Shown here piece by piece: positions 1 through 38,160 of a stretch of DNA of 38,857 nt. The first letter of the stretch is position 1. Every line of letters starts with the position of its first letter. The stretch is from a virus (taxonomy: Duplodnaviria; Heunggongvirae; Uroviricota; Caudoviricetes): IMG/VR virus record IMGVR_UViG_2636415906_000002; one strand, given 5' to 3'. The notes below the pieces were generated by a model. It was not told where the DNA came from and made no database searches. It was given only the letters and a program-made list of their open reading frames with translations. The translations under genes were made by a program, and so were the position numbers.

Positions 1-893
1 TTTAATACCTCTTTGTTTACTGGGGTTAATATCTGAGATGGTAGTTCTGAAAGATTCTCTTGTTCAAGTATATGTTGAAAGCTTTTATTCATCATTATGA
101 TGTTAAAAATCTCATTTACTATTAGTAGGTTGGTTTTTATGAATTTTGAGTTGTTATAAACAGATTTATGTTCAGCGATACTATTTTCATAAAGCTCAAT
201 CAACTCCTCTGCAGTCATCCTTTTTGATGGTTTGTGATAATAAAATCCGGCTGCTTTTGCACCTTTATTCCCAACTGTTCTTTGATTTAGAATGTGTTTT
301 ATCTTTATAATGTCCCGACTTTTTATTAATTTTTTATCATATGCTTCGGTAAGAATATCTTGTGCTTCCTCAGTTTCACATCTTGCAAATTGCACTGCGA
401 GATACAGAGGCAAATTACCCCGTTCGACTGCTGAGAGAAGTTTATGCTCTCCCTTATCAAGTAGCATATTAATACTGCTCACCCAGTTCGATGAATATCC
501 AGTAATCTCACTTATTTCGGAGTCTGAAAGTCCTCTGATTTTCATGTCTTTAATCACCTGTAATAACTCATTAGAACGTGGTCTTCTCCTTGCAATGTTT
601 TCAACTAAACTCATAACGTAAGCATCTTCTTCTGATACATCTCTTATAATTGCTGGAATAATAGTTTCACCTAATGCAACGAGAGCCTCTATTCTCCCTT
701 GACCACAAATTAAAGCATATTTGAAATCGCCTTCATCAATAGCTCTTACGCTTATTGGCTTGCTTAATCCTCTTTTTTTTATGCTTTCCTTTATTTCTTC
801 ATGCACTACCTTATTTCTTGTTCGTGGGTTAAGAAATTTTATTTTTGCAATCTCAATTTGAATTATTGGGAATTCATTTTTTTCAGGCAGCAT
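1..893 (-). CDS. ParB/RepB-like N-terminal nuclease-domain protein (partial; C-terminus beyond window start)
   Basis: Manual reverse-complement translation from ATG 893..891 (RBS GAGGGA upstream) stays open to the window edge (about 297 codons); N-terminus IQIEIAKIKFLNPRTRNKVVHEEIKESIKKRGLSKPISVRAIDEGDFKYALICGQGRIEALVALGETIIPAIIRDVSEEDAYVMSLVENIARR fits the ParB/Srx fold with a GQGR arginine motif; AT-rich; start overlaps stop of upstream recombinase by 11 nt. Absent from ORF track because it has no in-window stop. Confidence 0.55.
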   Translation of the reverse strand, partial: MLPEKNEFPIIQIEIAKIKFLNPRTRNKVVHEEIKESIKKRGLSKPISVRAIDEGDFKYALICGQGRIEALVALGETIIPAIIRDVSEEDAYVMSLVENIARRRPRSNELLQVIKDMKIRGLSDSEISEITGYSSNWVSSINMLLDKGEHKLLSAVERGNLPLYLAVQFARCETEEAQDILTEAYDKKLIKSRDIIKIKHILNQRTVGNKGAKAAGFYYHKPSKRMTAEELIELYENSIAEHKSVYNNSKFIKTNLLIVNEIFNIIMMNKSFQHILEQENLSELPSQILTPVNKEVL

Positions 894-2439
894 ATAGTTC
901 CCTCACTTTCATGCGAGTAATAATTTGTAGAAGTTTATCAAGATTATCAAATCTATAGAGATCTAATCGAATGTTGTTTGTTTCCGTCATGCACATTTTA
1001 TTATATTCGTTTTCAATCTTTGGTATGATATAAAAATCAAGAGGTGAAATATTTTGTGAATTCATTCGTATAACAATTGTTATGTCTGCTTTCTGTGAGT
1101 TATCAAACCGGACTTTCCATCTAAGTTTACCTGATTTCATATGTATGCATTTAGTAACAAGGACGGAAATTAAAAACTCATCATTGATGTAAAGCATTGG
1201 GGCATATTTATACTCGTCTATATGACAGTTACTTTTTAAAATTTCACCCTTAAAATCCTCAATTATCTCTGAGTAAAATGATCTTAGTGCTTCATTTATT
1301 TTGAGATAGCTGTAATCATGTTCTGGCTTATAACCAATCAAAGTATATGCTCTTAAAAGACCACCAAATCGGGTTCTATAAACAGAAGATGAAGGGCCTG
1401 TATCATCTTCATCAATGATAAAGCCTGATAGTTTTCCATTAGATTCTAATTTTTGTTTTAGTTTTTCTAATAGATCTTCATTAGTCAAATGAATGGATCG
1501 GAGCTGAATTATTTCTTGAGCTTTATTGTATTTTTTCTTTGAAATAATAGGTTTATATGCCTTGTCACATCTAACCCATTCATGTTTGGGGTTTTTTACA
1601 AGCCTACTTTTTAATTTAGATGAGGTTTTGTTATATATGTTGTTTCCAATATATTTTTCATTTGTCAAAATTTGATGTATTTTTGCACGAGTCCATAATG
1701 TTCCATTTTCTGCAGGTATGTTCTGTTCATTTAATCTCTCAGCAATAATGAATTCTGGGACGTTATTATCTATAAAGAGATCATATATTCTATTTACAAT
1801 TTTTATTTCATTTTTTGGTCCCGGAATTAATATTACCCTATCTGTTTGAATACTCTTTCTTTTGCGGAAACTCAATATTTCTTTAGCTATGCCATTTTCG
1901 TCTACTAAAAGACGTCTCAGCCCATAACCAGCCATACCGCCTTGATGATAACCAAGCTTTATTAAATTTACTTGCCCTATAAATACCTTTTCAGATAGAT
2001 TCCTGCTGTGATATGCAGCACTAGATCTTTTTATATTCAGTATAACAGAGGACTCTAAAGGGAAATCTTTAGTGGGTATAGGTTCGGAACAATATATAAG
2101 ATCTACACCATTTCTCTCAAATAGAAAGGAATAATATGCCGCTTCATCACTATTTTGAAAACGACCAAAACGGCTCACATCATAAAATAATACAGCCTGT
2201 ATATCTATTTTCTTTTGTTCTACATCGCTAAGTAACTGCTGCAAAGAATGCCTGCCTACGATACTGACTCCGCTCTTACCTGCATCATCGTAGGTATAAG
2301 CGATTTCCATATTGTTCTTTTCAGCATAATCTTTGATATATTCGGACTGATTATGTAAAGAATATTGCTGATGGTCGGTAGACATCCTCAAGTACTGCGC
2401 GACCCTAACTCTATGATTTTTGTCATTTTCGCTAGCCAT
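883..2439 (-). CDS. large serine recombinase (resolvase-type catalytic domain + recombinase domain)
   Basis: 518-aa ORF; N-terminal VAQYLRMSTDHQ catalytic-serine motif and DDAGKSG...R pattern of resolvase domain, then GYHQGGMAGYGLRR recombinase-domain signature; strongly AT-rich. Confidence 0.7.
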   Translation of the reverse strand: MASENDKNHRVRVAQYLRMSTDHQQYSLHNQSEYIKDYAEKNNMEIAYTYDDAGKSGVSIVGRHSLQQLLSDVEQKKIDIQAVLFYDVSRFGRFQNSDEAAYYSFLFERNGVDLIYCSEPIPTKDFPLESSVILNIKRSSAAYHSRNLSEKVFIGQVNLIKLGYHQGGMAGYGLRRLLVDENGIAKEILSFRKRKSIQTDRVILIPGPKNEIKIVNRIYDLFIDNNVPEFIIAERLNEQNIPAENGTLWTRAKIHQILTNEKYIGNNIYNKTSSKLKSRLVKNPKHEWVRCDKAYKPIISKKKYNKAQEIIQLRSIHLTNEDLLEKLKQKLESNGKLSGFIIDEDDTGPSSSVYRTRFGGLLRAYTLIGYKPEHDYSYLKINEALRSFYSEIIEDFKGEILKSNCHIDEYKYAPMLYINDEFLISVLVTKCIHMKSGKLRWKVRFDNSQKADITIVIRMNSQNISPLDFYIIPKIENEYNKMCMTETNNIRLDLYRFDNLDKLLQIITRMKVRELYAA

Positions 2440-2721: not shown

Positions 2722-3951
2722 TTATGCGGCAATAACTTTGCATTTTTGAGACGAAACATAGTCACTCCACCATTGCATGAGAACCACCCGTTCAGTGAGA
2801 TACTCTGCACGATTGTAGGCTGCAATTATTTCATCTTTCTTCGAGTGGGCAAGGGCGGCTTCTAAGACATCAGTCCTAAACTTGCCAGACTCCTCAGCAG
2901 CCGTTCTAGCAATGGATCGCATACCGTGAGCTACAAGCTCACCTCCGAAACCCATACGGATTATGGCCGCATTAGCTGTTTGTTCATGCATGTGATTGAG
3001 TGGAGCTTTGATACTGGGGAACACCCACTCTCTATGCCCGCTGATGACTTTCATTAAATCCAAAACTCGCAAAGCTTCTTTGCTCAGTGGAACTTTGTGA
3101 GGCTTCTTCATTTTCATAAACTCCGCCGGGATGTTCCACATGCCAGTTTCAATATCAATATCTGACCATCTTGTGCGAACAGCTTCACCTGGGCGAACCC
3201 ATGTGAGAAGTTGCCACTCAATCAGTAGCCTTGTTTCCAAACGGATAGAAGCATTGTTTAGAGCAACCAAGAAGCGAGGGAGTTCGGAAGGGGGTAATGC
3301 TGGCATATTCTGTTTTTTTGGCTTGCTGAACCGTTGCCCCAGGTTGTCTGCCGGGTTGAATTCTATGAGTTCTTCTGTTGCTGCATAGCGGAAAATTTCA
3401 TTCAGGCGGGATATGATGCGGCGAAGTGTTTCAAGGACACCTCGTTTTTCTATGGGTTCTAAATGCTGTTTAAGCATTTTAGGGCGAATCTCCTTAATTG
3501 GGGTATCACCCAATGTGGAAAAGATATTTCTCTCTAGGCTTCGCCAGATGTCGTTAGCATGATCTTGGGAGATGCCTGACGTTTTGACTTTCTCATCAAG
3601 CCACTTCTTGGCTACTGCTTGAAATGTATGTTCCGTGGCATCTTTCAGTGCATTGGCTTTTTGGTTGTTATGAACTTGGGGGTCTATACCATTTGTAAGC
3701 AACGACAAGTATTCATCACGTAAAGCTCGTGCCTTCGCAAGTGTAAGGTGAGGATAGGTTCCTAAGCTCACCTTAGTTCGCTTTTTGGTCACAGGCACTG
3801 CATATCTGAAATACCAATTTTTCTTCCCTCCCTTCGCCAGGGGAGCGATTCGCAACAGCAAACCATCGCCGTCAAAAAGGTTAACCTCTTTTTCGGCAGG
3901 TTTGGTGCTTTTGATTTCAGTGTCAGTGAGCTTCTTAGCGATTTTGGCCAT
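2722..3951 (-). CDS. tyrosine integrase, P4/CP4-57 IntA family
   Basis: ORF 2722..4032; probable true start ATG at 3951 giving MAKIAKKLTDTEIK...FDGDGLLLRI...WYFRY, the typical N-terminus of P4-family integrases; C-terminal catalytic region (GMRSIARTAAEESG...AYNRAEYL); sits directly downstream of an ssrA 3-prime-end copy and terminator. Confidence 0.85.
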   Translation of the reverse strand: MAKIAKKLTDTEIKSTKPAEKEVNLFDGDGLLLRIAPLAKGGKKNWYFRYAVPVTKKRTKVSLGTYPHLTLAKARALRDEYLSLLTNGIDPQVHNNQKANALKDATEHTFQAVAKKWLDEKVKTSGISQDHANDIWRSLERNIFSTLGDTPIKEIRPKMLKQHLEPIEKRGVLETLRRIISRLNEIFRYAATEELIEFNPADNLGQRFSKPKKQNMPALPPSELPRFLVALNNASIRLETRLLIEWQLLTWVRPGEAVRTRWSDIDIETGMWNIPAEFMKMKKPHKVPLSKEALRVLDLMKVISGHREWVFPSIKAPLNHMHEQTANAAIIRMGFGGELVAHGMRSIARTAAEESGKFRTDVLEAALAHSKKDEIIAAYNRAEYLTERVVLMQWWSDYVSSQKCKVIAA

Positions 3952-4049
3952 GTTTGGGACCCTCGATTTTAGGACCCATCTTCGTGGGTCCCATTCAGGG
4001 TGCCATAACTCGTAGTTCTCAGCAATTCTCACTAGACTACAATAGACGT

Positions 4050-4113: not shown

Positions 4114-4162
4114 TATTTGGTGGAGCTGGCGGGAGTTGAACCCGCGTCCGAAATTCCTACAT
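4114..4162. repeat. attL: 49-bp direct repeat (45 nt of ssrA 3-prime end + 4 nt), identical to 37794..37842
   Basis: TATTTGGTGGAGCTGGCGGGAGTTGAACCCGCGTCCGAAATTCCTACAT present at both positions; flanking bases diverge on both sides. Confidence 0.85.
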
Positions 4163-4247: not shown

Positions 4248-5294
4248 TTAATGTTCTGTCGCCAATCTGTCGCCATTGTAGGTCAACGAAGGTTGAGCCT
4301 TCCCTTTGTTTGTTACAATTTCATCAAAGATAGCTGGATTATTATCTTTCAGTAATCTTGCTAGTATAATGATTTGCCCAGACGAGCCATCATCCTTGAA
4401 TGAAAGGAAATTATCGGTAATATCAAGAATATCAATGGTAAATTTGAAGTAGGTTTCAATTGTATCGCCAAGTTCAATGCTGGACATGAAGTTAGTAATC
4501 ATTTCATATCCATCAAAGTATAAAGTTGCATGTTCATTTAACTCCATGGGAGTTAGGCAAAGCATTCGATTAAGTTCGGATAAGTGTTTTTCTATTGAAT
4601 GAAGAGATTGCATTTGACGGATTAAAACTTCGGCAAACTGAGAGCCACGATTAGATGAATGTATCTTCTCTAGGTTTTTTAGTATATCAACCCAGTGATT
4701 ATTTACTTCACGTATGTATTCTTTATCTGTATTTTTAGGCCGTCCCTTCTCTGGTGAGCTATTTATGAAAATATATCTATATAGATGTATTGGGTAGTTT
4801 ATTTTATAACTTATCTCTTTAGTACCATAATGACGTTCGCGTTTAATGGTTTTGTTAGGTAAATTGGTGAAATAATCAGTAACGAACTTTAGATGGCTAT
4901 AGTAGCTATCAGATAGATTCTTTTGCTTGGTTTCCTCAATTTGTCGGTTTGTTTGAACTGTGCGGTGTATGTTTGCTACGACAGCAACAAATGGTATGGA
5001 CAAAGAAAGTAAGGCGATAGGAAGCTTGCTAATTGCAATGAAATTATTAAAGCCCTCACTATCAAATTGAGGGGAATGTCCAAGCCAGGAAAATATACCA
5101 AAGTATATCGCTGAAAATACAGGAATCCTAAGTGATTGTTTAAATAAGTATTGACTTGTTAATGGCCTTTCATCCATGTTAAAGCCTTTTTTTGATACGC
5201 ATAGATATAATTCAAGGCATATATATAAAAAATATATTATGATAAGTAAGTACGATATCCATGGGTATTGTGGGATATAGTTATTAACAAGCAC
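4248..5294 (-). CDS. membrane-anchored protein of unknown function (att-proximal prophage cargo)
   Basis: 348-codon ORF with GTG at 5294 overlapping int stop by 11 nt (alternative ATG at 5177 gives 309 aa); 2-3 N-terminal hydrophobic helices then about 240-aa soluble domain with no motif I recognise; markedly AT-rich. Confidence 0.55.
   Translation of the reverse strand: MLVNNYIPQYPWISYLLIIIYFLYICLELYLCVSKKGFNMDERPLTSQYLFKQSLRIPVFSAIYFGIFSWLGHSPQFDSEGFNNFIAISKLPIALLSLSIPFVAVVANIHRTVQTNRQIEETKQKNLSDSYYSHLKFVTDYFTNLPNKTIKRERHYGTKEISYKINYPIHLYRYIFINSSPEKGRPKNTDKEYIREVNNHWVDILKNLEKIHSSNRGSQFAEVLIRQMQSLHSIEKHLSELNRMLCLTPMELNEHATLYFDGYEMITNFMSSIELGDTIETYFKFTIDILDITDNFLSFKDDGSSGQIIILARLLKDNNPAIFDEIVTNKGKAQPSLTYNGDRLATEH
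4256..4276. repeat. tandem CTGTCGCCA 9-mers (candidate integrase arm-type sites, P-arm side of attP)
   Basis: CTGTCGCCA at 4256..4264 and 4267..4275; same 9-mer recurs at 37730..37738 and inverted at 37702..37710 on the other side of the att core. Confidence 0.3.
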
Positions 5295-6327: not shown

Positions 6328-6966
6328 TTAGAGGTTCTTGATTACTTTGACTGCACGTCCTACGACTTCCACATCATCTACAGAACATTCAAATGAAGTG
6401 TCATCTTGGTTAACTACTATTTTGTTTCCGGGTATGCGCGCAATTTTGACGATGCTTTTAACTCCGTCCATATCGACTAACCAGAAGCCATTACTGACTT
6501 GTTTAACAGACGTATCCACTACAAAGCTATCATTAGCTGTTTTAACAAATAAAGCGTTGGATGAGTCACCATCGAGCAGGCTGCTATCAAGAAGAATTTC
6601 ATCACTTGGCTGCAGTTCGCCGTTCTTCAGTTCAACACGTTTGATGCTAGGAGCAACGATCTTAGAAAGTGGTCTTACAGTGACGGGAGGTTCATTTTTG
6701 AGATTTGTTTCTTCGTTCTCACACGCATACATATCTCCTTGACCAGTAGCCAGCCATAGAAGGGAAGCTCCTGTTTCAAGGGCACATTGGATTACCCATT
6801 CGGCAGGAAAGCTATCCCTTAAGTATCTGTTAGCCATAGTGCTTTTTGATACTTCCAGATGTTCGCAGAGCTGCTGTCGTGAGCTGAAGTTGTAAGCCTT
6901 AATAAGCCTATTAATCGCATCGCGCCCACCACTATCATTCCCCGCCTTGATTAAACTCATAATCAA
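6328..6966 (-). CDS. cI: immunity repressor, 186 CI-like
   Basis: 212 aa; N-terminal HTH-like region (SSRQQLCEHLEVSKSTMANRYL) and C-terminal domain; divergent from apl/cII across an operator-rich intergenic region; cotranscribed with int. Confidence 0.75.
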   Translation of the reverse strand: MIMSLIKAGNDSGGRDAINRLIKAYNFSSRQQLCEHLEVSKSTMANRYLRDSFPAEWVIQCALETGASLLWLATGQGDMYACENEETNLKNEPPVTVRPLSKIVAPSIKRVELKNGELQPSDEILLDSSLLDGDSSNALFVKTANDSFVVDTSVKQVSNGFWLVDMDGVKSIVKIARIPGNKIVVNQDDTSFECSVDDVEVVGRAVKVIKNL

Positions 6967-12510: not shown

Positions 12511-12530
12511 TACTGTAAATATAAACAGTG
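12511..12530. promoter_or_regulatory. LexA operator (SOS box) TACTGTAAATATAAACAGTG overlapping a candidate promoter (-35 TTTACA 12488..12493)
   Basis: perfect CTGT-N8-ACAG with AT-rich spacer, about 40 nt upstream of the ATG at 12572. Confidence 0.65.
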
Positions 12531-12571: not shown

Positions 12572-12760
12572 ATGCAGGACTATTTTTTGGAGTCTTTGAA
12601 GCTCCAGCGCATTGATTTTTTTCTTAAGCTTGTAGCGGCTAGTGAGTGTAGTGATGAAGAGAAGGGGCTGGCTCTGCAGTGGGTTTCTGAATTGACTGAT
12701 GAACTCATGGCAAAAATCAGAACCCACGAATACAACCGCTCAATGGATGTCATCAGCTGA
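12572..12760 (+). CDS. Tum-like antirepressor N-terminal segment (62 aa)
   Basis: RBS AGGAGGA; first gene downstream of the LexA box; overlaps the upstream extension of the DinI-like ORF in the +1 frame. Confidence 0.45.
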   Translation: MQDYFLESLKLQRIDFFLKLVAASECSDEEKGLALQWVSELTDELMAKIRTHEYNRSMDVIS

Positions 12761-12770
12761 GGTGACTTTT

Positions 12771-13004
12771 ATGCGCATTGAAATAATGATCGATAAAGAG
12801 CAGAAGATTAGCCAGTCTACCCTGGACGCCCTTGAATCCGAGCTTTACCGCAATCTGCGCCCCCTGTATCCCAAAACGGTAATTCGCATTCGCAAAGGTA
12901 GCTCTAACGGTGTGGAACTAACCGGACTGCAACTGGACGAAGAAAGAAAACAAGTGATGAAAATTATGCAGAAGGTGTGGGAAGACGACAGCTGGCTGCA
13001 TTAA
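12771..13004 (+). CDS. DinI-like protein (equivalent to the C-terminal half of a 186 Tum-type antirepressor)
   Basis: MRIEIMIDKEQKISQSTLDALESELYRNLRPLYPKTVIRIRKGSSNGVELTGLQLDEERKQVMKIMQKVWEDDSWLH resembles DinI; ATG 12771. Confidence 0.7.
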   Translation: MRIEIMIDKEQKISQSTLDALESELYRNLRPLYPKTVIRIRKGSSNGVELTGLQLDEERKQVMKIMQKVWEDDSWLH

Positions 13005-13138
13005 GAAACGTTGCTGGCGTCTGAACTTGCTTCTGGCGTCAGCAAGGTTGAACAACGAGCCCTTGCGAGGCGTTAGCTCTGTAGTGCATGTCTATGCCGC
13101 ATGAGATCGCATGATCGTTTGAGGATCGTTTTTGCTAA

Positions 13139-13164
13139 GGCCCGCCAGAACTGGCGGGCTTTTG
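13139..13164 (+). terminator. intrinsic terminator after the Tum-like module
   Basis: GCCCGCCAG-AA-CTGGCGGGC followed by TTTTG. Confidence 0.5.
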
Positions 13165-13208
13165 CGTAGATCATGCAGGTGCATGAAAACCACTACATAA
13201 AGCGGGCA

Positions 13209-13227
13209 GGCGTGGCGGGGATACGAG
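13209..13227. other. cos-like cohesive-end site GGCGTGGCGGGGATACGAG
   Basis: matches from memory the first 13 nt of the 186-type cos (GGCGTGGCGGGGA...), at the expected position before the portal-terminase block. Confidence 0.4.
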
Positions 13228-13321
13228 CGCGCGCTGAGATATGAATTAGTAATAGTTGTTTTAATCTATCTTGTTAAGTAAATTAACGATCAACCCATGG
13301 TCATGTCTAGGGAATGATGAT

Positions 13322-15103
13322 ATGAATTTTGATGCAACTCCTTTAAATATTAAAAATATACTTTCTGTTAAACAGCGTTATGTGATTCCACGGAATCAAC
13401 GAGAATTTAGTTGGGAAAAGTTACAACTTGATGAATTGTGGCAAGACATAATAAGAAATATAAAATTAAATCCCAAAGGGGATGACTTTGAATTCAATGA
13501 GTACTTTATTGGTACAATTGTATTGTCTGGTGCTGACAGTGATAATGTTTTGGAGATTGTTGATGGTCAGCAGCGTTTCAGTGTTATTACAATTCTACTT
13601 TCTTTAATTTCTAGGTTTTTAAGAAAAAATGGGAAGGCCGAATTTGCTGATGATATTTTTAAAACATATATCGTAACCGCAAATCAGACGTTCAATAGAA
13701 ATTCTGTCAGTTCTAATGGCGACTCAGTAGTTGAGAAGCTTTCTAAAAATAGTGACAGGGCTTTTTTTAAACTAAAATTCCAAGATAGAGTTGAGCATAA
13801 AGCTGATGTGACTTGCGATGAAGATAAAAAGATTCAATATGCTGGGTTGTATTTAAGTAGAAAGCTAGGAAAGAAAGCATTATGTTCTTCTTTGTTGCGT
13901 GACGGTGCAGTAAAGTATAAAAAGGAAGATTACCTTTTTTGCTTGAATGCCGTTTACAATATGGTTACTAATTATCTTAAATTAGTAAGGATATCAGTAG
14001 GCAAGGAAGATGACGCGTATGATATTTTCGAGGTTTTGAATGCAAGGGGAATAAACTTAAGCTCCCTTGATCTGATTAAAAATAAAGTTTTCCAGAGTTG
14101 TATTGAAACATATCCAATAGATAAAGCCAAAGAGAAATGGGATTATATTACTAATTGCATCGAAGCTAGAGATAGTAACGCTACAATGGTTGATTATGTC
14201 AGGTGTTGGTGGCTTTCTAAGTTTAATTATATAGGTGAAGATCAACTATACCGTGCCTTTAAAAGAGAGATAAATGATGGTGTTTATGGATTAACTGCAA
14301 TTTCATTTTTGGATGAGTTGCATAAAGATGTTGATTTATATTGTAAGATAATTTCTCCAGATATTGATGATTGGCCTCAACAGGATCAGCGAGATATTTA
14401 CAATTCACTTAAAGCATTTGAAATATTCAATGTTTCAATCCCTCGCCCATTCATTTTGTCATTATTAAGAAAAAGAAGAGATAAATCTAGAAGTCTTTCG
14501 CAAAAAAGTTTAATAGAGTGTCTAATGTGTTTAGAGAGATTCCACTTTAGATTTAATGCTATTTGCCGATTAAGACCCTCTGGCATAGACGCCAAGTATT
14601 CAGTATTAGCAGTAAGCCTTGATAAAGCTACTAATAAACGTAGTATCGAATCAACCATTAGTGAAGCAATAGCATACTTTTCTGCGAAAAGTCCAAATGA
14701 AAAAGTATTCAATGAGGCATTTGTTAAAAATTTATTTTATACAAATAAAAAAGCCTCCCAGCGTAAGCTCATAATGTATATTTTTGAACGTTTTGAAAAG
14801 AAATTGCGAGGAACTAATGAGTTAAAATTAGACTTAGTTTCACTCGAGCATATTGGTGCACAAAGTAGTTTTGACTCAGAGGTTGTTGGATTAATGGGGA
14901 ATCTTCTTCCTCTTTGCTTTACTTTGAATGAATCATGTAAAAATGATAGCTTAAGTAAAAAAATAAACGAGTATAAGAAGTCAAACCTTAAGGTGGTTAA
15001 TGAGTTTATTGATGAGTATTCATCTAACGATGAGGAATGGAATGCCCAAAAAGTTCAGATTAGAACATTATCTATGTCAGCGAAGGCCTATAATATAATC
15101 TAA
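13322..15103 (+). CDS. DUF262/DUF1524 two-domain nuclease, GmrSD/BrxU-like type IV restriction-type defence protein
   Basis: 593 aa from ATG 13322; N-terminal DGQQR motif (13562..13576) typical of DUF262 ParB-like NTPase domain; C-terminal LEHIGAQ ... GNLLPL ... NESCKN His-Me finger-like motif (E509/H510 at 14846..14851); AT-rich; own terminators on both sides. Confidence 0.7.
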   Translation: MNFDATPLNIKNILSVKQRYVIPRNQREFSWEKLQLDELWQDIIRNIKLNPKGDDFEFNEYFIGTIVLSGADSDNVLEIVDGQQRFSVITILLSLISRFLRKNGKAEFADDIFKTYIVTANQTFNRNSVSSNGDSVVEKLSKNSDRAFFKLKFQDRVEHKADVTCDEDKKIQYAGLYLSRKLGKKALCSSLLRDGAVKYKKEDYLFCLNAVYNMVTNYLKLVRISVGKEDDAYDIFEVLNARGINLSSLDLIKNKVFQSCIETYPIDKAKEKWDYITNCIEARDSNATMVDYVRCWWLSKFNYIGEDQLYRAFKREINDGVYGLTAISFLDELHKDVDLYCKIISPDIDDWPQQDQRDIYNSLKAFEIFNVSIPRPFILSLLRKRRDKSRSLSQKSLIECLMCLERFHFRFNAICRLRPSGIDAKYSVLAVSLDKATNKRSIESTISEAIAYFSAKSPNEKVFNEAFVKNLFYTNKKASQRKLIMYIFERFEKKLRGTNELKLDLVSLEHIGAQSSFDSEVVGLMGNLLPLCFTLNESCKNDSLSKKINEYKKSNLKVVNEFIDEYSSNDEEWNAQKVQIRTLSMSAKAYNII

Positions 15104-15111
15104 TATATATT

Positions 15112-15138
15112 GGGCGCTTATGTTAAGCGCCTTGTTTC
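15112..15138. terminator. bidirectional intrinsic terminator between the convergent cargo gene and portal gene
   Basis: GGCGCTTA-TGT-TAAGCGCC hairpin followed by TTGTTTC. Confidence 0.5.
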
Positions 15139-15148
15139 ATAATCATTT

Positions 15149-16183
15149 TTAACAGTTTAAGGCATAAGTTTTAAAGTTAACTACTTTCTCACCAAGCCAG
15201 TGATTTAGTTCCTTTAGTCGTTTCTGCAATGGTATTAACTCATTACGAACAAAAACGAGACTGGCCTTCTCCACATCCCCAAACCCCCCAACATTATTCG
15301 GCAAAATTCCCATCATCTGCGGCGGTACGCGGTGTGCAGCCATCATGTCGTCCCGGCTCACGTTCTTGATGTTCAGAAATTCATCTTTCGCTGCGACTTC
15401 TGACAACGGGATGATCTGAAGCCCGTCCTTTTTGCCGTTAGGCGAGTACATAAACAGGTTGCGGAAGTTGCCAGGGCCTTTGGCGCTTTTCATCGCGTTG
15501 CGGAGGTTGTTCACATCTTCCTGGTTCTGCGCGGCGTCGGTCATATACATGATGAAGCCTGCATGACTGCCGTTAATGTAATACTTGCGGCGGAACAGCG
15601 TGGCAGACTCGTTGAGCAGGGCGGATGGAATAGCAGAAAGATAACCGGGCAGGCCGTAGATCTCCTGGTTGATGTCCGGTTCCATCAGATGAAAGATGCT
15701 GCCTTTCGTGAACTGATATGGCTGCGTGGTCATACCGTATTGCACAAACCAGTAGGTATCCAGGTCTAACCCGCGTCGGGTGTATTTTGCCAGGGCAGGT
15801 TCAAGGGCGATAACTTCACCGAAGCGGTTCGTGCGTTTCTCCAGGTAGGCGTTACCAAATACCAGATAGTCCTGCACAAAACGCGAAAAAGCCTGCTGGC
15901 TGAGCAGCGGATGAGGGATGTAGGTGCTGGTCAGAATGTTGCACTTTACTGCAATCGGGGAACTATGATGAACGGCAGCGCGGAAGGTGCGCGCCAGTCC
16001 GTCAAAGCTGACGGGCGGCTCATACCAGCGGTCCATCTGTACGCATTCCACATAATCCAGCAGTTCTCGGCGGTCCAGAACAGGAACGGGATCGCCGAAG
16101 CTGAATGCTTCGGCTGTAGTTTGACTTTTAAGCTGGATCTGTTTCGTCGCCGCAGCGCGGTTCTTCTTACTCTTTCCCATCAA
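15149..16183 (-). CDS. Q: portal protein
   Basis: 344 aa; P2 gpQ position and size, overlaps terminase stop. Confidence 0.9.
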   Translation of the reverse strand: MMGKSKKNRAAATKQIQLKSQTTAEAFSFGDPVPVLDRRELLDYVECVQMDRWYEPPVSFDGLARTFRAAVHHSSPIAVKCNILTSTYIPHPLLSQQAFSRFVQDYLVFGNAYLEKRTNRFGEVIALEPALAKYTRRGLDLDTYWFVQYGMTTQPYQFTKGSIFHLMEPDINQEIYGLPGYLSAIPSALLNESATLFRRKYYINGSHAGFIMYMTDAAQNQEDVNNLRNAMKSAKGPGNFRNLFMYSPNGKKDGLQIIPLSEVAAKDEFLNIKNVSRDDMMAAHRVPPQMMGILPNNVGGFGDVEKASLVFVRNELIPLQKRLKELNHWLGEKVVNFKTYALNC

Positions 16184-17946
16184 AAAATCTCCACAATATT
16201 GCTGGTATTGGCGGATTCGCCCTGCAGCGGTTCGTTAAACAGTGCGTGCATCGTTGCCCAGGCCAGATCGGCGTGGCTGGCTTCTTCGCTGCGGCTGGCT
16301 TCATAGGTCGGGCGGTTGCCACTGGCGGTGGTGGCGCGACGGATTGCCATAAAGGACTGCGCTATGTCGGTGTGTCCGGCGTCAAACTCCAGACGGCGGT
16401 GGCTGATAATGTCGTAGGCCTTGAGTACCAGGGCGTTTTTAACGTTGGGGTTGTAGACAAACTCCCGGACGGCAGGAAAAAACGCTTTCACGTTCTCGTA
16501 AACCCCGTGACCAACGCCGGTTGAGTCGATACCGATATAGGTCACGTTGTACTGTTCGGTCAGTTTTTTGATGGCGTCAGCCTGGGCGCGGAAGTCCATT
16601 CCGCGCCACTGGTGACGCTCAAGAATGCGGAACTTACCGCCCGGCACGGCTGGCGGCGCCACCACCACGCATCCGGCGCTGTCGCCGTTCTGCGTACCTT
16701 TCGCCGGGTCATATCCGATCCACACTTCGCGCCAGCCAAACGGGCGCAGCGCCAGTGCATGAAAGTCGGTCCAGACTTCCCAACTGTCCACCATGCACGC
16801 CTGCAGCTCGCTGAGCGGGAACACGGACGCGAGATCGTCCACAAACTCGCACATCAGCAGGTTCTGGTATTCGTCCGGGCTGTACTCCATGCGCAACTGG
16901 TCAAGGTCGAACAGGTTACAGCCGCCGCGCACCGCATCTTCCACGGTGACTATCTGGCGGTATTGCCCGTCTGCGCACAGCAGGCCGGGGGCCAGATTGC
17001 TGTGGGACAGGTCGATGTCCACCTTGTCGGCCTTGTTGCGCCCACGGTTGAACAGCGCACCGGACCAGAACGGATAAGCACTGTGGGTCAGGCTGGATGG
17101 CGTGGAAAAATAGGTTTGTCGCCATTTTTTGTGAATAGCCATACCGGAAGCCACTTTGCGCAGCTCCTGGAATTTCGGTATCCAGAAATATTCATCCAGA
17201 TACAGGTTGCCGTGGTAACTCTGGGCAGTGCGGGCATTGGTGCCGAGGAAATACAGTGTGGCCCCGTTGGGAAGCACCATCGGATCGCCTTTCAGCTCCA
17301 CCTCCACTTCTTTGGCAAAGTCGATGATGTACTGTTTGAAGACGTGGGCCTGTGCCTTGCTGGCGGAAAGAAAAATCTGGTTACGTCCGGTAAGCAGAGC
17401 GTCAATCAGGGCTTCACGGGCAAAGTAAAAGGTCGCGCCGATCTGGCGTGACTTCAGCAGATTGCGGATGCGGTTGGTTTTTCCGGCTTCCCACCAGTGG
17501 CGCTGGTAGTTGAACATGGAGGAATGGAAGATTTCTTCCAGCTTCTCAATCTGTTCATCGGTGAAGACATTCTTTTCCGGCTGACGGCGCGGGCCTTTGT
17601 TGCGGTTGGCGACGTTAGGGTTTAAGTCGGCTTCGTTGCCGCCATTGTTAAACTTGCCGATCCGCGCGTGGCGTTCCGACTGGCGCGCCAGCAGGTCAAT
17701 CTCTTTGAAATCTTTCCCTTCTTTGTGCTCCTTCATAATGAGCTGGCAGTAGCGTGCGGCGGTGGTGAGCTGCATCTGATCCAGCGGCCCATAGTCACCC
17801 CACTTGTCGCGTTTTTTCCAGCTGTGAACGGTTGCAACTTTCTCGCCCAGCATTTCAGCAATGCGGGCTACGCGGTATCCCTGAAAGTACAGCAGCATGG
17901 CCTGCCGACGGGGATCGAGATCTGCGGGTGTCAGTGTGGTGTTCAT
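16180..17946 (-). CDS. P: terminase large (ATPase) subunit
   Basis: 588 aa; P2 gpP position, divergent from O. Confidence 0.9.
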   Translation of the reverse strand: MNTTLTPADLDPRRQAMLLYFQGYRVARIAEMLGEKVATVHSWKKRDKWGDYGPLDQMQLTTAARYCQLIMKEHKEGKDFKEIDLLARQSERHARIGKFNNGGNEADLNPNVANRNKGPRRQPEKNVFTDEQIEKLEEIFHSSMFNYQRHWWEAGKTNRIRNLLKSRQIGATFYFAREALIDALLTGRNQIFLSASKAQAHVFKQYIIDFAKEVEVELKGDPMVLPNGATLYFLGTNARTAQSYHGNLYLDEYFWIPKFQELRKVASGMAIHKKWRQTYFSTPSSLTHSAYPFWSGALFNRGRNKADKVDIDLSHSNLAPGLLCADGQYRQIVTVEDAVRGGCNLFDLDQLRMEYSPDEYQNLLMCEFVDDLASVFPLSELQACMVDSWEVWTDFHALALRPFGWREVWIGYDPAKGTQNGDSAGCVVVAPPAVPGGKFRILERHQWRGMDFRAQADAIKKLTEQYNVTYIGIDSTGVGHGVYENVKAFFPAVREFVYNPNVKNALVLKAYDIISHRRLEFDAGHTDIAQSFMAIRRATTASGNRPTYEASRSEEASHADLAWATMHALFNEPLQGESANTSNIVEIF

Positions 17947-19999: not shown

Positions 20000-20650
20000 A
20001 TGAGCCTGAGTCCCGCACGGCAGCATCGCCTGCGCGTTCAGGCTGAACAGGCCGCCCGCGAGGGCGGCAGTGTTCGCCACGCATCGGGCTATGACCTGAT
20101 GCTGCTGCAACTGGCGGAAGACCGCCGCCGTCTCAAGGGCGTTCAGTCCACGGTCAAAAAAGCGGAAATCAAGGTGGAGCTGCTGCCGAAGTACGCCGCC
20201 TGGGCAGAGGGTGTCCTGGCTGCCGGAGGCGCTCAACAGGATGACGTGCTGATGTACGTGATGCTGTGGCGCATTGATGCCGGAGATTATGCCGGGGCGC
20301 TGGAGATCGGGCGTCATGCCCTGCGTCATGGCTGGGTGATGCCGCTGGGTAACCGCAACGTGCAGACCGTGCTGGCAGAGGAAATGGCAGACGCCGCGCA
20401 GAGCGCAATGCTTGCCGCCACCGGCTTTGATGCCGATCTGTTGTTGCAGACGCTGGAGCTGACAGACGGTCTGGATATGCCGGACCAGTCACGGGCGCGT
20501 CTGCATAAAGCGATTGGCGCTGTCCTGAGTGAAAGCAATCCGGCTTCCGCCCTTAATCATCTCAACCATGCGTTACAGCTTGATCCCCGCTGTGGCGTGA
20601 AAAAAGACAAACAGCAGCTGGAGCGCAGACTGCGCAATGACAGCCGCTGA
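20000..20650 (+). CDS. M: terminase small (endonuclease) subunit
   Basis: 216 aa, P2 gpM position. Confidence 0.85.
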   Translation: MSLSPARQHRLRVQAEQAAREGGSVRHASGYDLMLLQLAEDRRRLKGVQSTVKKAEIKVELLPKYAAWAEGVLAAGGAQQDDVLMYVMLWRIDAGDYAGALEIGRHALRHGWVMPLGNRNVQTVLAEEMADAAQSAMLAATGFDADLLLQTLELTDGLDMPDQSRARLHKAIGAVLSESNPASALNHLNHALQLDPRCGVKKDKQQLERRLRNDSR

Positions 20651-27747: not shown

Positions 27748-28188
27748 ATGAATCGTTTTGTGTTCAGTCCATCTGAGTCCCGTTTTTATGCCATCGAGTG
27801 GCAGGCTGATTATGTTGATAATAATTGTTGGCCACATGATGCCATTAACGTTAGTGACAGCATTTATTATGAGTTTTCCGGCACTCCCCCTACAGGTAAG
27901 CAACTTATAACTTTAAATAACATGCCAGCATGGGGTGATATTCCTCCACCTACACGAGAAGAATTAATTGTCGCTGCTGATGTGGAGAAGCAAAAAAGAA
28001 TAGATTTAGCCAATGATTACATGAACGGTAAGCAATGGCCTGGTAAAGCAGCTATTGGTCGTCTGAAAGGTGAGGAACTGGCACAATATAATTTGTGGCT
28101 GGATTATCTGGACGCACTGGAGCTGGTCGATACCGCCAGTGCGCCAGATATTGAATGGCCTACGCCTCCGGCAGTTCAGGCCAGATGA
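27748..28188 (+). CDS. G: tail fibre assembly chaperone
   Basis: 146 aa directly after H. Confidence 0.8.
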   Translation: MNRFVFSPSESRFYAIEWQADYVDNNCWPHDAINVSDSIYYEFSGTPPTGKQLITLNNMPAWGDIPPPTREELIVAADVEKQKRIDLANDYMNGKQWPGKAAIGRLKGEELAQYNLWLDYLDALELVDTASAPDIEWPTPPAVQAR

Positions 28189-28762
28189 CATCTGGCGCGG
28201 TGCTGGTATCAGTTGCCGTCACCGCGTCAATGTAATCCAGTACAGCGTTAAGGCTGGTTGTTTCTGCCTGCGTCAGTTTACGTCCGGCCTGCAATTTCAG
28301 CTGAATCAGACTGATTGAAGCCATTGCAGTATCAATCAGTGACTGGCGCTGTGCTTCTGCTGCATCTACTGCGGCGCTATGCTGTGCTTCGGTATCCGTC
28401 ACCCATTTCTCACCATCCCATTTATCGTATGGCGTTAACGGGGCGATAGTGGTTGTATTATCAGGGTAATCACCCGGAGCTGTGATTTCTTTTGATTCTC
28501 CTGTTTCGGTGCTAAAGACGATTTCACCGCGATGGTCTGGCACATATTCCCATGAGTTAAAATCTACAGATCGGCAGATTGCATAACCAGCTTTGTATGT
28601 GCCAGGGGCATCTAAACAGGAATATGCAGGGATACCGACACCAACGGCAAGATATTCAGTTGATGTGGAAATATATTCCCGTGTTTCGCCATCATAGTTA
28701 TAGACGGTAATATTCCCCGCCTTTGTAGCAATAAACTCGCTATTTAATACAGCGTTATCCAT
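28160..28762 (-). CDS. alternative tail fibre assembly chaperone (inverted cassette)
   Basis: 200 aa on minus strand, convergent with G, coupled TAATG to the alternative fibre cassette. Confidence 0.7.
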   Translation of the reverse strand: MDNAVLNSEFIATKAGNITVYNYDGETREYISTSTEYLAVGVGIPAYSCLDAPGTYKAGYAICRSVDFNSWEYVPDHRGEIVFSTETGESKEITAPGDYPDNTTTIAPLTPYDKWDGEKWVTDTEAQHSAAVDAAEAQRQSLIDTAMASISLIQLKLQAGRKLTQAETTSLNAVLDYIDAVTATDTSTAPDVIWPELPEA

Positions 28763-29304
28763 TATGCAGCCCTCACGATATAGTTAAATGCAATATTCCG
28801 TGGACGGGTTTCATTTATCCCATATGCTGTTGTTCTCTGATTCCCGACAAAATATCCATTTGGATTAGAAGATACAGAATAATCATCAAAATCAAGTGGG
28901 CTATCAGCACCCGGCGTCAGGCTTGCAATATATCCTCTTCCCATAACTTCTGATGCTGGTATTTCTTTTGTACGATAATCACTAACTCTGAAGAGCTGCC
29001 CTTGGTGGGTGTGTGATTCCACTCCTCCATTCTGAAGACTTAGCAAGGCACGTACAGCATCAATACCACGCCCGTCATCCCAGCCACGAATAAACTCACC
29101 ACGTAAATCAGGCAATTTATTTGTCGGATAAGCCTTTGCCAGTTCCGGGTATTCTTCAGCAGAAAAAGCGGCACCGTTGCATTTCAGCCAGCCTGTTGGC
29201 GGAGTGGCTGAAGGCCACGGAACAGGCACCCCAACCGGTAATGCAGAGCCTTCTCCCAAACCAACGTTTAAGAAAATGCAGAGGTAACAGCTAACTGGCA
29301 TCAT
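28762..29304 (-). CDS. alternative tail-fibre C-terminal cassette (promoterless; fused to H codons 1..350 only after inversion)
   Basis: minus-strand ORF passing through crossover site 2 in the same codon phase as H at site 1; conserved fibre C-terminal motifs PVGVPVPWP...GW..CNG...YP.L...RGEFIRGWDDGRG. Confidence 0.65.
   Translation of the reverse strand: MMPVSCYLCIFLNVGLGEGSALPVGVPVPWPSATPPTGWLKCNGAAFSAEEYPELAKAYPTNKLPDLRGEFIRGWDDGRGIDAVRALLSLQNGGVESHTHQGQLFRVSDYRTKEIPASEVMGRGYIASLTPGADSPLDFDDYSVSSNPNGYFVGNQRTTAYGINETRPRNIAFNYIVRAA
29251..29276. repeat. invertase crossover site 2 (hix-like): TTCTCCCAAACC-AA-CGTTTAAGAAAA
   Basis: 26-bp imperfect palindrome; core AA is the reverse complement of site-1 core TT, i.e. 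inverted configuration. Confidence 0.5.
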
Positions 29305-29331
29305 CTCCGGTTTTTATTCAGGGGGATGATC

Positions 29332-29898
29332 ATGCTTATTGGCTATGTACGCGTGTCAACAAATGACCAGAACACCGATTTGCAACGCAATGCACTGAAC
29401 TGTGCGGGATGTGAGCGGATTTTTGAGGATAAAATCAGTGGCACCAAGTCCGACAGACCGGGGCTGAAAAAGCTGCTCAGGACACTATCGGCAGGAGACA
29501 CGCTGGTTGTCTGGAAGCTGGACAGACTGGGGCGCAGTATGCGGCATCTTGTTACGCTGATAGAAGAGCTGCGCCAGCGTGGCGTGAATTTCCGAAGCCT
29601 GACTGACAGTATTGATACCAGCACCCCAATGGGCCGTTTCTTTTTTCATGTCATGGGTGCCCTGGCTGAAATGGAACGCGAACTGATAGTTGAACGTACC
29701 AGGGCGGGGCTGGCTGCAGCTCGTGCTAAAGGCAGAGTAGGTGGACGCCGTCCTAAGTTGACCAGCGAACAGTGGTCACAGATTGGGCGTTTACTCGAGG
29801 CCGGAGAATCAAGACAGCGTATTGCACTGATTTTTGATGTAGGCGTTTCTACCATTTATCGAAAATTTCCGGCAAATAAGAACAATAAATCTCCCTGA
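29332..29898 (+). CDS. DNA invertase, Gin/Cin/Pin/Hin-family serine recombinase
   Basis: MLIGYVRVSTNDQNTDLQRNAL...DTLVVWKLDRLGRS...MGRFFFHVMGALAEMERELIVERT - near-identical architecture to Gin/Hin from memory; catalytic Ser in VRVSTNDQ. Confidence 0.9.
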   Translation: MLIGYVRVSTNDQNTDLQRNALNCAGCERIFEDKISGTKSDRPGLKKLLRTLSAGDTLVVWKLDRLGRSMRHLVTLIEELRQRGVNFRSLTDSIDTSTPMGRFFFHVMGALAEMERELIVERTRAGLAAARAKGRVGGRRPKLTSEQWSQIGRLLEAGESRQRIALIFDVGVSTIYRKFPANKNNKSP

Positions 29899-37172: not shown

Positions 37173-37195
37173 AACCTGCTACGGCAGGTTTTTAT
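37173..37195 (+). terminator. intrinsic terminator after ogr
   Basis: AACCTGC-TACG-GCAGGTT followed by TTTTA. Confidence 0.5.
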
Positions 37196-37674
37196 TCATC
37201 TGGGATCTCACCCGTTTCAAGAAAATGTATAAAGCCAGGCTCATCTATGATGATTGTGCCTTTCATCCTGGCTGCCGATACTTTTGATGGGCCTGCATTG
37301 TAACCGCAACAGAGCATCTGAAGGCTTTGGGTTACAGAGGTTCTTACCGTTAATCCTTGTTCATTCGCCTTATCAACCAATCTTTCTTTATCTGCTTTCT
37401 TAAATCCGGTGAAACACACATCGAATGTATTTTTTTTCGGACCAGACTGCTTAGTGAGATGTGAGTAGCTTTCGGGGAGGAATGACGCGCATTCCTGAAT
37501 GGCTTGTTCTGGTGAATCGTACTGTTTAAGAATGCGGTCTTTTCGGAAGGTTTTTATTCGATCGGTGTTCTTACAAATGCCCTGTATATGATTTTCGCTA
37601 TAACTGATGCTCTGTATAGAGTGAACACCGATACGACCATTTGCATTGATGTAAACAAAGTGAAGTTCTTCCAT
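37192..37674 (-). CDS. small WYL-like + BRCT-domain protein (att-proximal prophage cargo)
   Basis: 160 aa, RBS AAGAGG; C-terminal FDVCFTGF...GLTVRTSVTQ...LCCGYNAGPSKVSAARMKGTIIIDEPGFIHFLETGE aligns by eye to the LigA-type BRCT domain; N-terminal RIGVHSIQS...TFRKDRI resembles a WYL-domain core. Confidence 0.6.
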   Translation of the reverse strand: MEELHFVYINANGRIGVHSIQSISYSENHIQGICKNTDRIKTFRKDRILKQYDSPEQAIQECASFLPESYSHLTKQSGPKKNTFDVCFTGFKKADKERLVDKANEQGLTVRTSVTQSLQMLCCGYNAGPSKVSAARMKGTIIIDEPGFIHFLETGEIPDE

Positions 37675-37793: not shown

Positions 37794-37842
37794 TATTTGG
37801 TGGAGCTGGCGGGAGTTGAACCCGCGTCCGAAATTCCTACAT
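37794..37842. repeat. attR: 49-bp direct repeat overlapping the 3-prime end of intact ssrA
   Basis: identical to 4114..4162. Confidence 0.85.
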
Positions 37843-38160
37843 CCTCGGTACTACATGCTTAGTCAGTCTTTACATTCGCTTGCCAGCTGCGGACGGACAC
37901 GCCACTAACAAACTAGCCTGATTAAGTTTTAACGCTTCAACCCCAGGCAGGGCTTCCACGCGATCTCTTTTGGGTTTGACCTCTCTTGATCCCCGTCCTA
38001 AGAGCGGAGGCTAGGGAGAGAGGGCTCTAAGCAGGTTATTAAGCTGCTAAAGCGTAGTTTTCGTCGTTTGCGACTATTTTTTGCGGCTTTTTACGAGGCC
38101 AACCGCCCCTCGGCATGCACCTTGGGTTTCGCAAATCCCGTCGAATCCAGAATCAGCCCC
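37798..38160 (-). ncRNA. ssrA: tmRNA (SsrA), 363 nt
   Basis: reverse complement reads GGGGCUGAUUCUGGAUUCGACGGG ... tag-reading-frame region ... GGGUUCAACUCCCGCCAGCUCCACCA, matching enterobacterial tmRNA from memory. Confidence 0.95.

Follow-up and report, generated by a model that had tools for sequence, protein, structure and literature searches.

The closest described counterparts of the locus analysed here are the cos sites of phages P2 and 186 and of the satellite P4. As references we use the annotated cohesive ends of P2 (GGCGAGGCGGGGAAAGCAC, record AF063097) and of 186 (GGCGTGGCGGGGAAAGCAT, record U32222). P4 is packaged by the P2 terminase, and a core cos signal is common to the two (PMC9122126); a core of 55 bp is attributed to Ziermann & Calendar 1990 in passages of PMC5694545 and PMC9594776. 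Comparing the sequences, what P4 and P2 share is exactly 29 nt to the left of the cohesive end, the 19-mer itself, and 7 nt to its right, that is, a 55-bp core. In P2, 186, PsP3 and EtG the portal gene Q comes about 170-180 nt after cos with no intervening gene (167 nt from cos to the Q stop in P2). The tin and old genes of the P2 TO region, which also lie beside cos, are found between A and cosR, at the right-hand end of the packaged molecule. P4 is a satellite without packaging genes, in which cos follows psu and the variable slot ends at int, unlike the prophage described below; but like it, the P4 hotspot (gop/beta/cII) has variable cargo at the left-hand end of the packaged molecule, starting directly past position cos+7.

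Cargo beside cos has been described several times. Rousset 2022 (PMC9122126) defined a cos-proximal defence hotspot between gpA and gpQ, with a follow-up in NAR in 2026 (PMC13586616); in the available parts of both papers, gpA-gpQ is a single 'cos-adjacent' interval, and the side of cos on which the cargo lies is left unstated. Dodd & Egan 1996 (Virology 219:115), as presented in PMC7826664 and PMC5694545, concerns the retrons Ec67 and Ec86 in a 186-related prophage, where foreign DNA stands in place of the stretch between cos and the packaging genes. A Dam methylase is noted in the retron-carrying sequence, and a Fels-2-like Klebsiella prophage compared in the same article has both a Dam methylase and cos (PMC5694545). 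For phiCTX and phiRSY1/phiRSA1, the relevant passage of PMC5694545, citing Nakayama 1999, reports that additional ORFs separate cosL from the Q homologue, and calls that interval a hotspot for foreign genes. Finally, SEN8 (Felsduovirus, NC_047753) is a phage that has been isolated and propagated (PMC5427200), and its announcement (Genome Announc 2017, PMC5427200) gives a cos site, ggcgtggcggggatacgag, identified by annotation.

We have analysed a stretch of 38,857 nucleotides of viral DNA (IMG/VR record IMGVR_UViG_2636415906_000002), which we refer to as the window. The original prediction was that a site at 13209-13227 resembles the cohesive ends of 186 and P2, that it lies between a Tum-like module and a DUF262/DUF1524 gene, and that, if it is cos, the defence cargo is at the extreme left end of the packaged genome, between cos and the portal gene, and not on the A side as old and tin are in P2. 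The features that bear on this prediction are collected in Table 1.

Table 1. Features of the window around the predicted cos site and at the ends of the prophage.
Feature	Positions	Strand	Basis or remark
attL, 49-bp repeat	4114..4162	+	
LexA-box-like site CTGTAAATATAAACAG	12513..12528	+	only CTGT-N8-ACAG in the window
Small ORF	12572..12760	+	with the next, last genes on the A side of cos
DinI-family gene	12771..13004	+	Pfam DinI, E=1e-22
Three GCATG repeats (13086, 13099, 13109)	13086..13113	+	fourth copy at 13181
GC-rich hairpin GCCCGCCAGAACTGGCGGGC, then TTTT	13140..13163	+	apparent from the sequence itself
55-bp cos core (29 nt left + 19 nt + 7 nt right)	13180..13234	+	
Predicted 19-nt cohesive end (cosN)	13209..13227	+	homology to P2/186 ends; start of the SEN8 record
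CGCGCGC, putative right half-site and last conserved bases	13228..13234	+	
AT-rich variable cassette	13235..15225	.	cos+8 into the last ~25 codons of Q; right limit approximate
GmrSD-type (DUF262/DUF1524) cargo gene, 593 aa	13322..15103	+	
Terminator-like hairpin GGGCGCTTATGTTAAGCGCCT	15112..15132	.	lies where the cargo gene and Q converge, in a gap of 45 nt
Portal gene Q	15149..16183	-	Pfam Phage_portal; annotated portal in relatives
Terminase large subunit (gpP-like)	16180..17946	-	Pfam Terminase_5, Terminase_6N, Terminase_6C
Terminase small subunit (gpM-like)	20000..20650	+	Pfam Phage_term_smal
attR, 49-bp repeat	37794..37842	+	overlaps 3' end of ssrA (tmRNA; 37798-38160)

The window carries a complete P2/186-type prophage, apparently intact. 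Its two att repeats are perfect and 33,680 bp apart, which gives a phage genome of that same length from att to att. It encodes an integrase, a CI-type repressor, a Dam methylase, gpA, gpP, gpO, gpN, gpM, gpL, gpD and Ogr, and its terminase, portal and capsid genes are complete; the gpP-like large subunit is the enzyme expected to cut cos. The gpA gene ends at 12417, so that the A side of cos amounts to only 791 nt, occupied by the small ORF and the DinI-family gene, both of which are also annotated by RefSeq in an identical E. coli locus. The record of 186 has a LexA site annotated before tum, at a place equivalent to that of the LexA-box-like site of the window, and this site together with the small-ORF/DinI operon is the positional counterpart of the p95/tum SOS operon of 186. 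The Tum-like module of the original prediction can be refined in these terms, and the location given for the site, between that module and the DUF262/DUF1524 gene, stands.

Other parts of the window hold features of separate interest. Outside attL there are two recombinase genes, a tyrosine integrase of the Arm-DNA-bind_3 type (2722-4032, minus strand) and a large serine recombinase (883-2439, minus strand), which suggest another element integrated in tandem at ssrA. Two ORFs near the ends of the prophage, 4248-5294 (minus strand, between attL and int) and 37192-37674 (minus strand, between ogr and attR), have no Pfam match and only weak PADLOC matches (2TM effector, 8e-5; PDC-S48, 2e-7), and they may be further accessory cargo in minor hotspots. 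There is also an invertible tail-fibre module at 28160-29898, with a resolvase-type invertase (29326-29898, plus strand), an inverted tail-fibre C-terminal segment (28762-29304, minus strand) and an assembly gene (28160-28762, minus strand).

The predicted cohesive end GGCGTGGCGGGGATACGAG is present in a single copy in the window. Compared with 186, its first 13 bases are identical and 15 of the 19 agree in total, the differences being at positions 14, 16, 17 and 19 of the cohesive end; compared with P2 and with P4, 14 of 19 agree in each case. The likeness stated in the original prediction is borne out by the annotated records. Its tail reads ATACGAG, where P2, 186, PsP3, EtG and P4 have AAAGCAC/T. 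When the 186 19-mer is searched across the window with at most 3 mismatches there is no match, because four positions differ. The exact 13-mer GGCGWGGCGGGGA occurs once, against a chance expectation that we calculate at ~0.002, and the window has four further matches to it, each at 2 mismatches.

The alignment to the P2 and 186 cos regions that had been proposed as a check was performed by joining the right and left ends of each phage into the circular form and aligning them to positions 13050-13330. It reveals a homologous block: homology to the cos regions of P2, 186 and P4 spans ~150 nt around the predicted cohesive end. Over the 55-bp core the window has 42/55 identities with P2, 44/55 with 186, and 43/55 with P4, on a scale where P2 and 186 have 48/55 with each other. 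The aligned sequences share TGCAT/GCATG repeats, a GC-rich dyad, the string TGCAT.AAAACC....AAAG.GGGC, the cohesive end, and then (T/C)GCGCGC. Put as a list of what the window has in common with P2, 186, PsP3, EtG and P4, these are a cohesive end starting with GGCG(A/T)GGCGGGG, the 29-nt left core, YGCGCGC, the upstream TGCAT repeats, and a site placed between the A-side genes and Q. A BLAST search of the cos region against annotated P2-like phages gives E-values down to 1e-70.

SEN8 is closer still: it has the identical 19-mer followed by CGCGCGC, and the same left flank as the window. The record NC_047753 ends at the base aligned with window position 13208 and begins with the 19-mer, annotated there as 'putative cos site'; likewise, in the records of the 186-type phages PsP3 and EtG the first bases are a 186-type 19-mer, at the position that corresponds in the alignment. 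In a literature search for the 19-mer string it was found only in PMC5427200. The two differ in what lies between cos and Q: SEN8 has genes for an HNH endonuclease and for a hypothetical protein there, and the window has a GmrSD-type gene. Following the alignment, the predicted nicks would be before 13209 in the top strand and after 13227 in the bottom strand; these exact positions rest on the alignment, with 4 of the 19 positions differing from the experimentally defined P2/186 ends. The site lies between A and Q, with its G-rich strand reading toward Q.

The flanks of the cohesive end have features of their own. The 7 nt to its left, GCGGGCA, match the reverse complement of the 7 nt to its right, GCGCGCG, at 5 of 7 positions. 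Such a partial mirror would fit two nicking half-sites, and it would explain why the constraint described below ends at +7. Further to the left, there are 4 copies of GCATG in the 159 nt before cos, compared to 0.14 expected; their counterparts in the alignment are the TGCAT repeats of P2, 186 and P4, and they probably belong to the predicted terminase recognition region. The GC-rich hairpin about 50-70 nt left of cos, which a consensus terminator scan missed, is likely the terminator of the DinI operon. GC-rich dyads are similarly placed in 186 and in P4, and the hairpin may serve both as operon terminator and as part of the cos recognition region.

In order to see how conserved this arrangement is, we gathered 160 loci with the Q protein as query, 80 from IMG/VR and 80 from GTDB species genomes. 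Counting the window, the cos core is found downstream of Q in 138 of 161 loci, always between Q and A and in one orientation. The exact 19-mer of the window is present in 106 of these 138 (Q identity 65-96%), and in 98 the next bases are CGCGCGC. As a conservation profile, sequences were anchored at cos and duplicates removed, leaving 113 distinct right flanks. The frequency of the majority base is 0.95 at positions -29 to -1, 0.97 within the 19-mer, and 0.95 at +1 to +7; past +7 it drops to 0.45, 0.40, 0.34. Between pairs of sequences, mean identity falls from 0.92 in the core to 0.29 over the following 55 nt. Such a profile is the hallmark of a constrained site that borders a hypervariable slot.

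Could the site still be a chance G-rich match that has nothing to do with cos? Just 15 of 19 positions match 186, and the window holds other G-rich near-matches at 2 mismatches, but neither ~150 nt of homology with P2, 186 and P4, with the BLAST E-values it brings, nor the recurrence of the exact 19-mer at the syntenic place in more than 100 loci is what an unrelated match would produce. Together with the conservation profile across relatives they refute the idea, to which we give next to no credence.

We therefore read positions 13209-13227 as the probable functional cos of a P2/186-type prophage that belongs to the Fels-2-like lineage and is integrated in ssrA, with the cargo leftmost on the packaged molecule; judging from the sequence comparisons, we put the probability of this reading at about 0.88. 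Along with it we infer that the DNA is cleaved at the predicted bonds, that the repeats on the left have a role, and that the flanks are half-sites.

Many enterobacterial P2-like prophages are cryptic. The site may then be asked to be a relic in a defective prophage, whose copies look conserved because they are recent, and whose functional ends, if any, are elsewhere. Against this, the 19-mer and the 7 nt after it are near-invariant across genera, down to a Q identity of ~73%, while the DNA adjoining them is randomised; no second candidate site is present in the window; all packaging genes are intact in a genome of P2-like length; and the same site is that of SEN8, an isolated and propagated phage. 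We find a relic highly improbable. As a proxy for physical ends, we also looked for IMG/VR contig termini that coincide with cos, and none were evident.

Two further searches describe the distribution of the cos variant with the ATACGAG tail. The exact 25-mer is found in 119 IMG/VR loci, every one of them P2-like, 'delta' matches among them being Ogr homologues. In 74 P4-like satellites, cos lies ~165 nt after psu with variable DNA from the cos+7 junction, and none of these psu-linked cos sites has the ATACGAG variant, all 74 being of P2 or 186 type. One metagenomic contig (IMGVR_UViG_3300011853_000021) has two exact 25-nt cos motifs, at 3441-3465 (minus strand) and 6704-6728 (plus strand), inverted and ~3.2 kb apart, which could be a misassembly or a rearranged element.

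A functional cos at this position sets the window apart from P2 in the side of cos on which the cargo is found. The A side has only its 791 nt and the Q stop is 1921 nt from cos, so the arrangement is not that of the P2 TO region; the original prediction of a cargo between cos and the portal gene, contrary to old and tin, agrees with the gene order. On the map convention of P2 (cosL, then Q), the cargo is the first gene, which upholds the claim that it is at the left end of the packaged genome.

This is not particular to the window. In the Fels-2-like lineage the Q stop and cos are 104 to 3499 nt apart (median 1555); the distance is at least 500 nt in 125 of 138 loci and below 250 nt, as in P2 and 186, in 12 of 138. 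The A side varies as well, from 481 to 5093 nt, the 791 nt of the window being a minimal small-ORF/DinI module. As a control, the same procedure was run with the Q protein of P2 itself as query, which yielded 79 loci of the P2 lineage. There, cos is 156-170 nt from Q in 77 of 79 loci, without cargo in between, and the A stop is found 1.7-5.7 kb away from cos (median 3.1 kb). Therefore, with Q-side cargo in 125/138 loci of the one lineage and in 2/79 of the other, the contrast with P2 is a trait of the lineage and not a peculiarity of the window, whose layout is ordinary for the Fels-2-like lineage, being the state of the majority. In the 2 exceptions among the 79 loci with P2-type Q and cos, 1.4-1.9 kb separates Q from cos, so the P2 lineage, too, makes occasional use of the Q-side slot.

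What fills the slot differs from one relative to another. Between cos and Q, vB_EcoM-813R9 has a Hypoth_Ymh protein, 500465-1 a TIR protein, RE-2010 an AIPR protein, and Fels-2 a 1.7-kb hypothetical gene. Scanning the largest ORF in each of 112 distinct slots, we find TIR, AIPR, PIN_12, AAA_21, KAP, SEFIR, GmrSD, retron RTs, Schlafen, SieB, OLD-like TOPRIM, AbiU, AbiLi and AriA. In 109 of the 112 the largest cargo ORF reads from cos to Q, convergent with Q, and the window follows this pattern. The retron RTs found in these slots recall the Ec67/Ec86 prophage, with which the window has in common both the cos-side insertion and the Dam methylase, although its own cargo is of GmrSD type and not a retron. 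phiCTX and phiRSY1/phiRSA1, for their part, have distant hosts (Pseudomonas, Ralstonia), other cos variants and other cargo.

In the window, the 1.9 kb between cos and Q is filled by the GmrSD-type gene. Its product has GmrSD_N (4e-32; PF03235, residues 10-257) and GmrSD_C (3e-9; PF07510, residues 459-585), both above the gathering score, so that a DUF262 domain at the N terminus and a DUF1524 nuclease domain at the C terminus are predicted in one protein; a DGQQR motif is visible in the translation, and PADLOC matches it to HEC-06 and Orf5. A consensus scan of 13235-13321 for a sigma-70 promoter gave nothing convincing. The locus thus has the properties of the published hotspot, with variable content between gpA and gpQ (113 right flanks, 112 largest ORFs), and cargo from known or candidate anti-phage families (GmrSD_N/C; HEC-06, Orf5). 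Moreover, Table S5 of Rousset 2022 lists this very locus for strain D72 (NZ_CP035312) as 'hypothetical + DUF262/DUF1524 + DinI'. The accessions given in that table, WP_001154434 + WP_047662251 + WP_001217575, are the RefSeq accessions at the identical locus, the cargo protein being WP_047662251. Within the available portions of PMC9122126, the DUF262/DUF1524 system was not found among the systems tested. The cos site, the cos-cargo-Q layout and the exact locus are, then, already published. Among 5,426 complete E. coli genomes, 17 have the cos-GmrSD-Q arrangement; in strains CH4793, FDAARGOS_1287, TW10690 and D72 the locus is 99.9-100% identical to that of the window.

The variable cassette can be delimited on both sides. 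Its GC content is 0.32, compared to 0.51 for the prophage, and it does not stop at the end of the cargo gene. The 3' end of Q (15149-15225 in the window), that is, its last ~20-25 codons after the conserved NELxPLQKR, is also AT-rich (GC 0.33). Among 79 loci with Q more than 93% identical we count 58 distinct Q tails, which nevertheless keep the residue pattern L.ELN.W...I.F..Y.L. The mean GC of the tails is 0.32, versus 0.50 in the 40 codons upstream, and it correlates with the GC of the cargo (Spearman 0.41, p=0.002). Each relative also has its own hairpin in the gap between cargo and Q. Because the Q tails are AT-rich and divergent, and their GC follows that of the cargo, the swapped cassette seems to include the C-terminal tail of the portal protein, together with its own terminator hairpin. 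We also considered a second cos beside Q and rejected it: the 45-nt gap between Q and cargo holds only the terminator-like hairpin, and no other site in the window matches.

Two boundaries this sharp could reflect a dedicated exchange, in which the cos+7 junction would be produced by a site-specific target or by recombination from the terminase-cut end, and the conserved block would double as a site for swapping cassettes. The boundary inside the 3' end of Q, with Q tails specific to each cassette, and the single orientation of 109/112 cargo ORFs, would both be in line with this. A search for direct repeats revealed no repeat pair flanking the slot, however, nor is there a recombinase gene beside it; the P2 lineage has the same core with cargo on the other side; and purifying selection on the 55-bp core plus homologous recombination in cos and Q is sufficient to account for the junctions. 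We regard a dedicated exchange as very unlikely.

With a functional cos at 13209-13227, packaging could proceed as follows. After excision and replication, the gpM-like/gpP-like terminase would bind the GCATG repeats and the 29-nt left core, and nick twice, 19 nt apart, to give linear DNA whose left end is 5'-GGCGTGGCGGGGATACGAG. To the right of the cohesive end only 7 nt, the partial mirror of the left half-site, would be constrained, and therefore the DNA from cos+8 to the last ~25 codons of Q would be free to vary and would act as a cargo slot. In the window this slot holds an AT-rich GmrSD-type gene, so the GmrSD gene would come first on the packaged genome, with its ATG at nt 114 of the predicted virion DNA.

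A more general proposal is that each lineage stably keeps its defence cargo on one side of cos, the Q side for the Fels-2/Ec67-prophage lineage and the A side for the P2 lineage proper, and that in the former the cargo moves as a mobile cassette with a fixed left junction at cos+7 and a right junction in the portal gene. We consider this general proposal unlikely. If it were true, each Q-side cassette would carry along an AT-rich C-terminal tail of the portal protein as well as a terminator of its own. And if the association were mechanistic, the cos-proximal position itself would drive the turnover of defence genes in phages and satellites; candidate drivers would be recombination that sets out from the left end cut by terminase, or selection for being injected last or first. 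The alternative to a turnover driven by cos is ordinary homologous exchange plus selection on cos.

The importance of the site is small beyond correct annotation, in that it fixes the predicted virion map of this prophage family, with the left end at 13209 and a defence gene first. There are modest by-products that are useful, namely the quantified split between lineages and a cassette that extends into portal gene Q by its last ~25 codons. The split opens no long-standing question and is a tidy descriptive point, but one that could help hotspot-mining pipelines to place cos and to delimit cassettes. The site also shows that what has been published as one gpA-gpQ hotspot consists of two slots, parted by cos.
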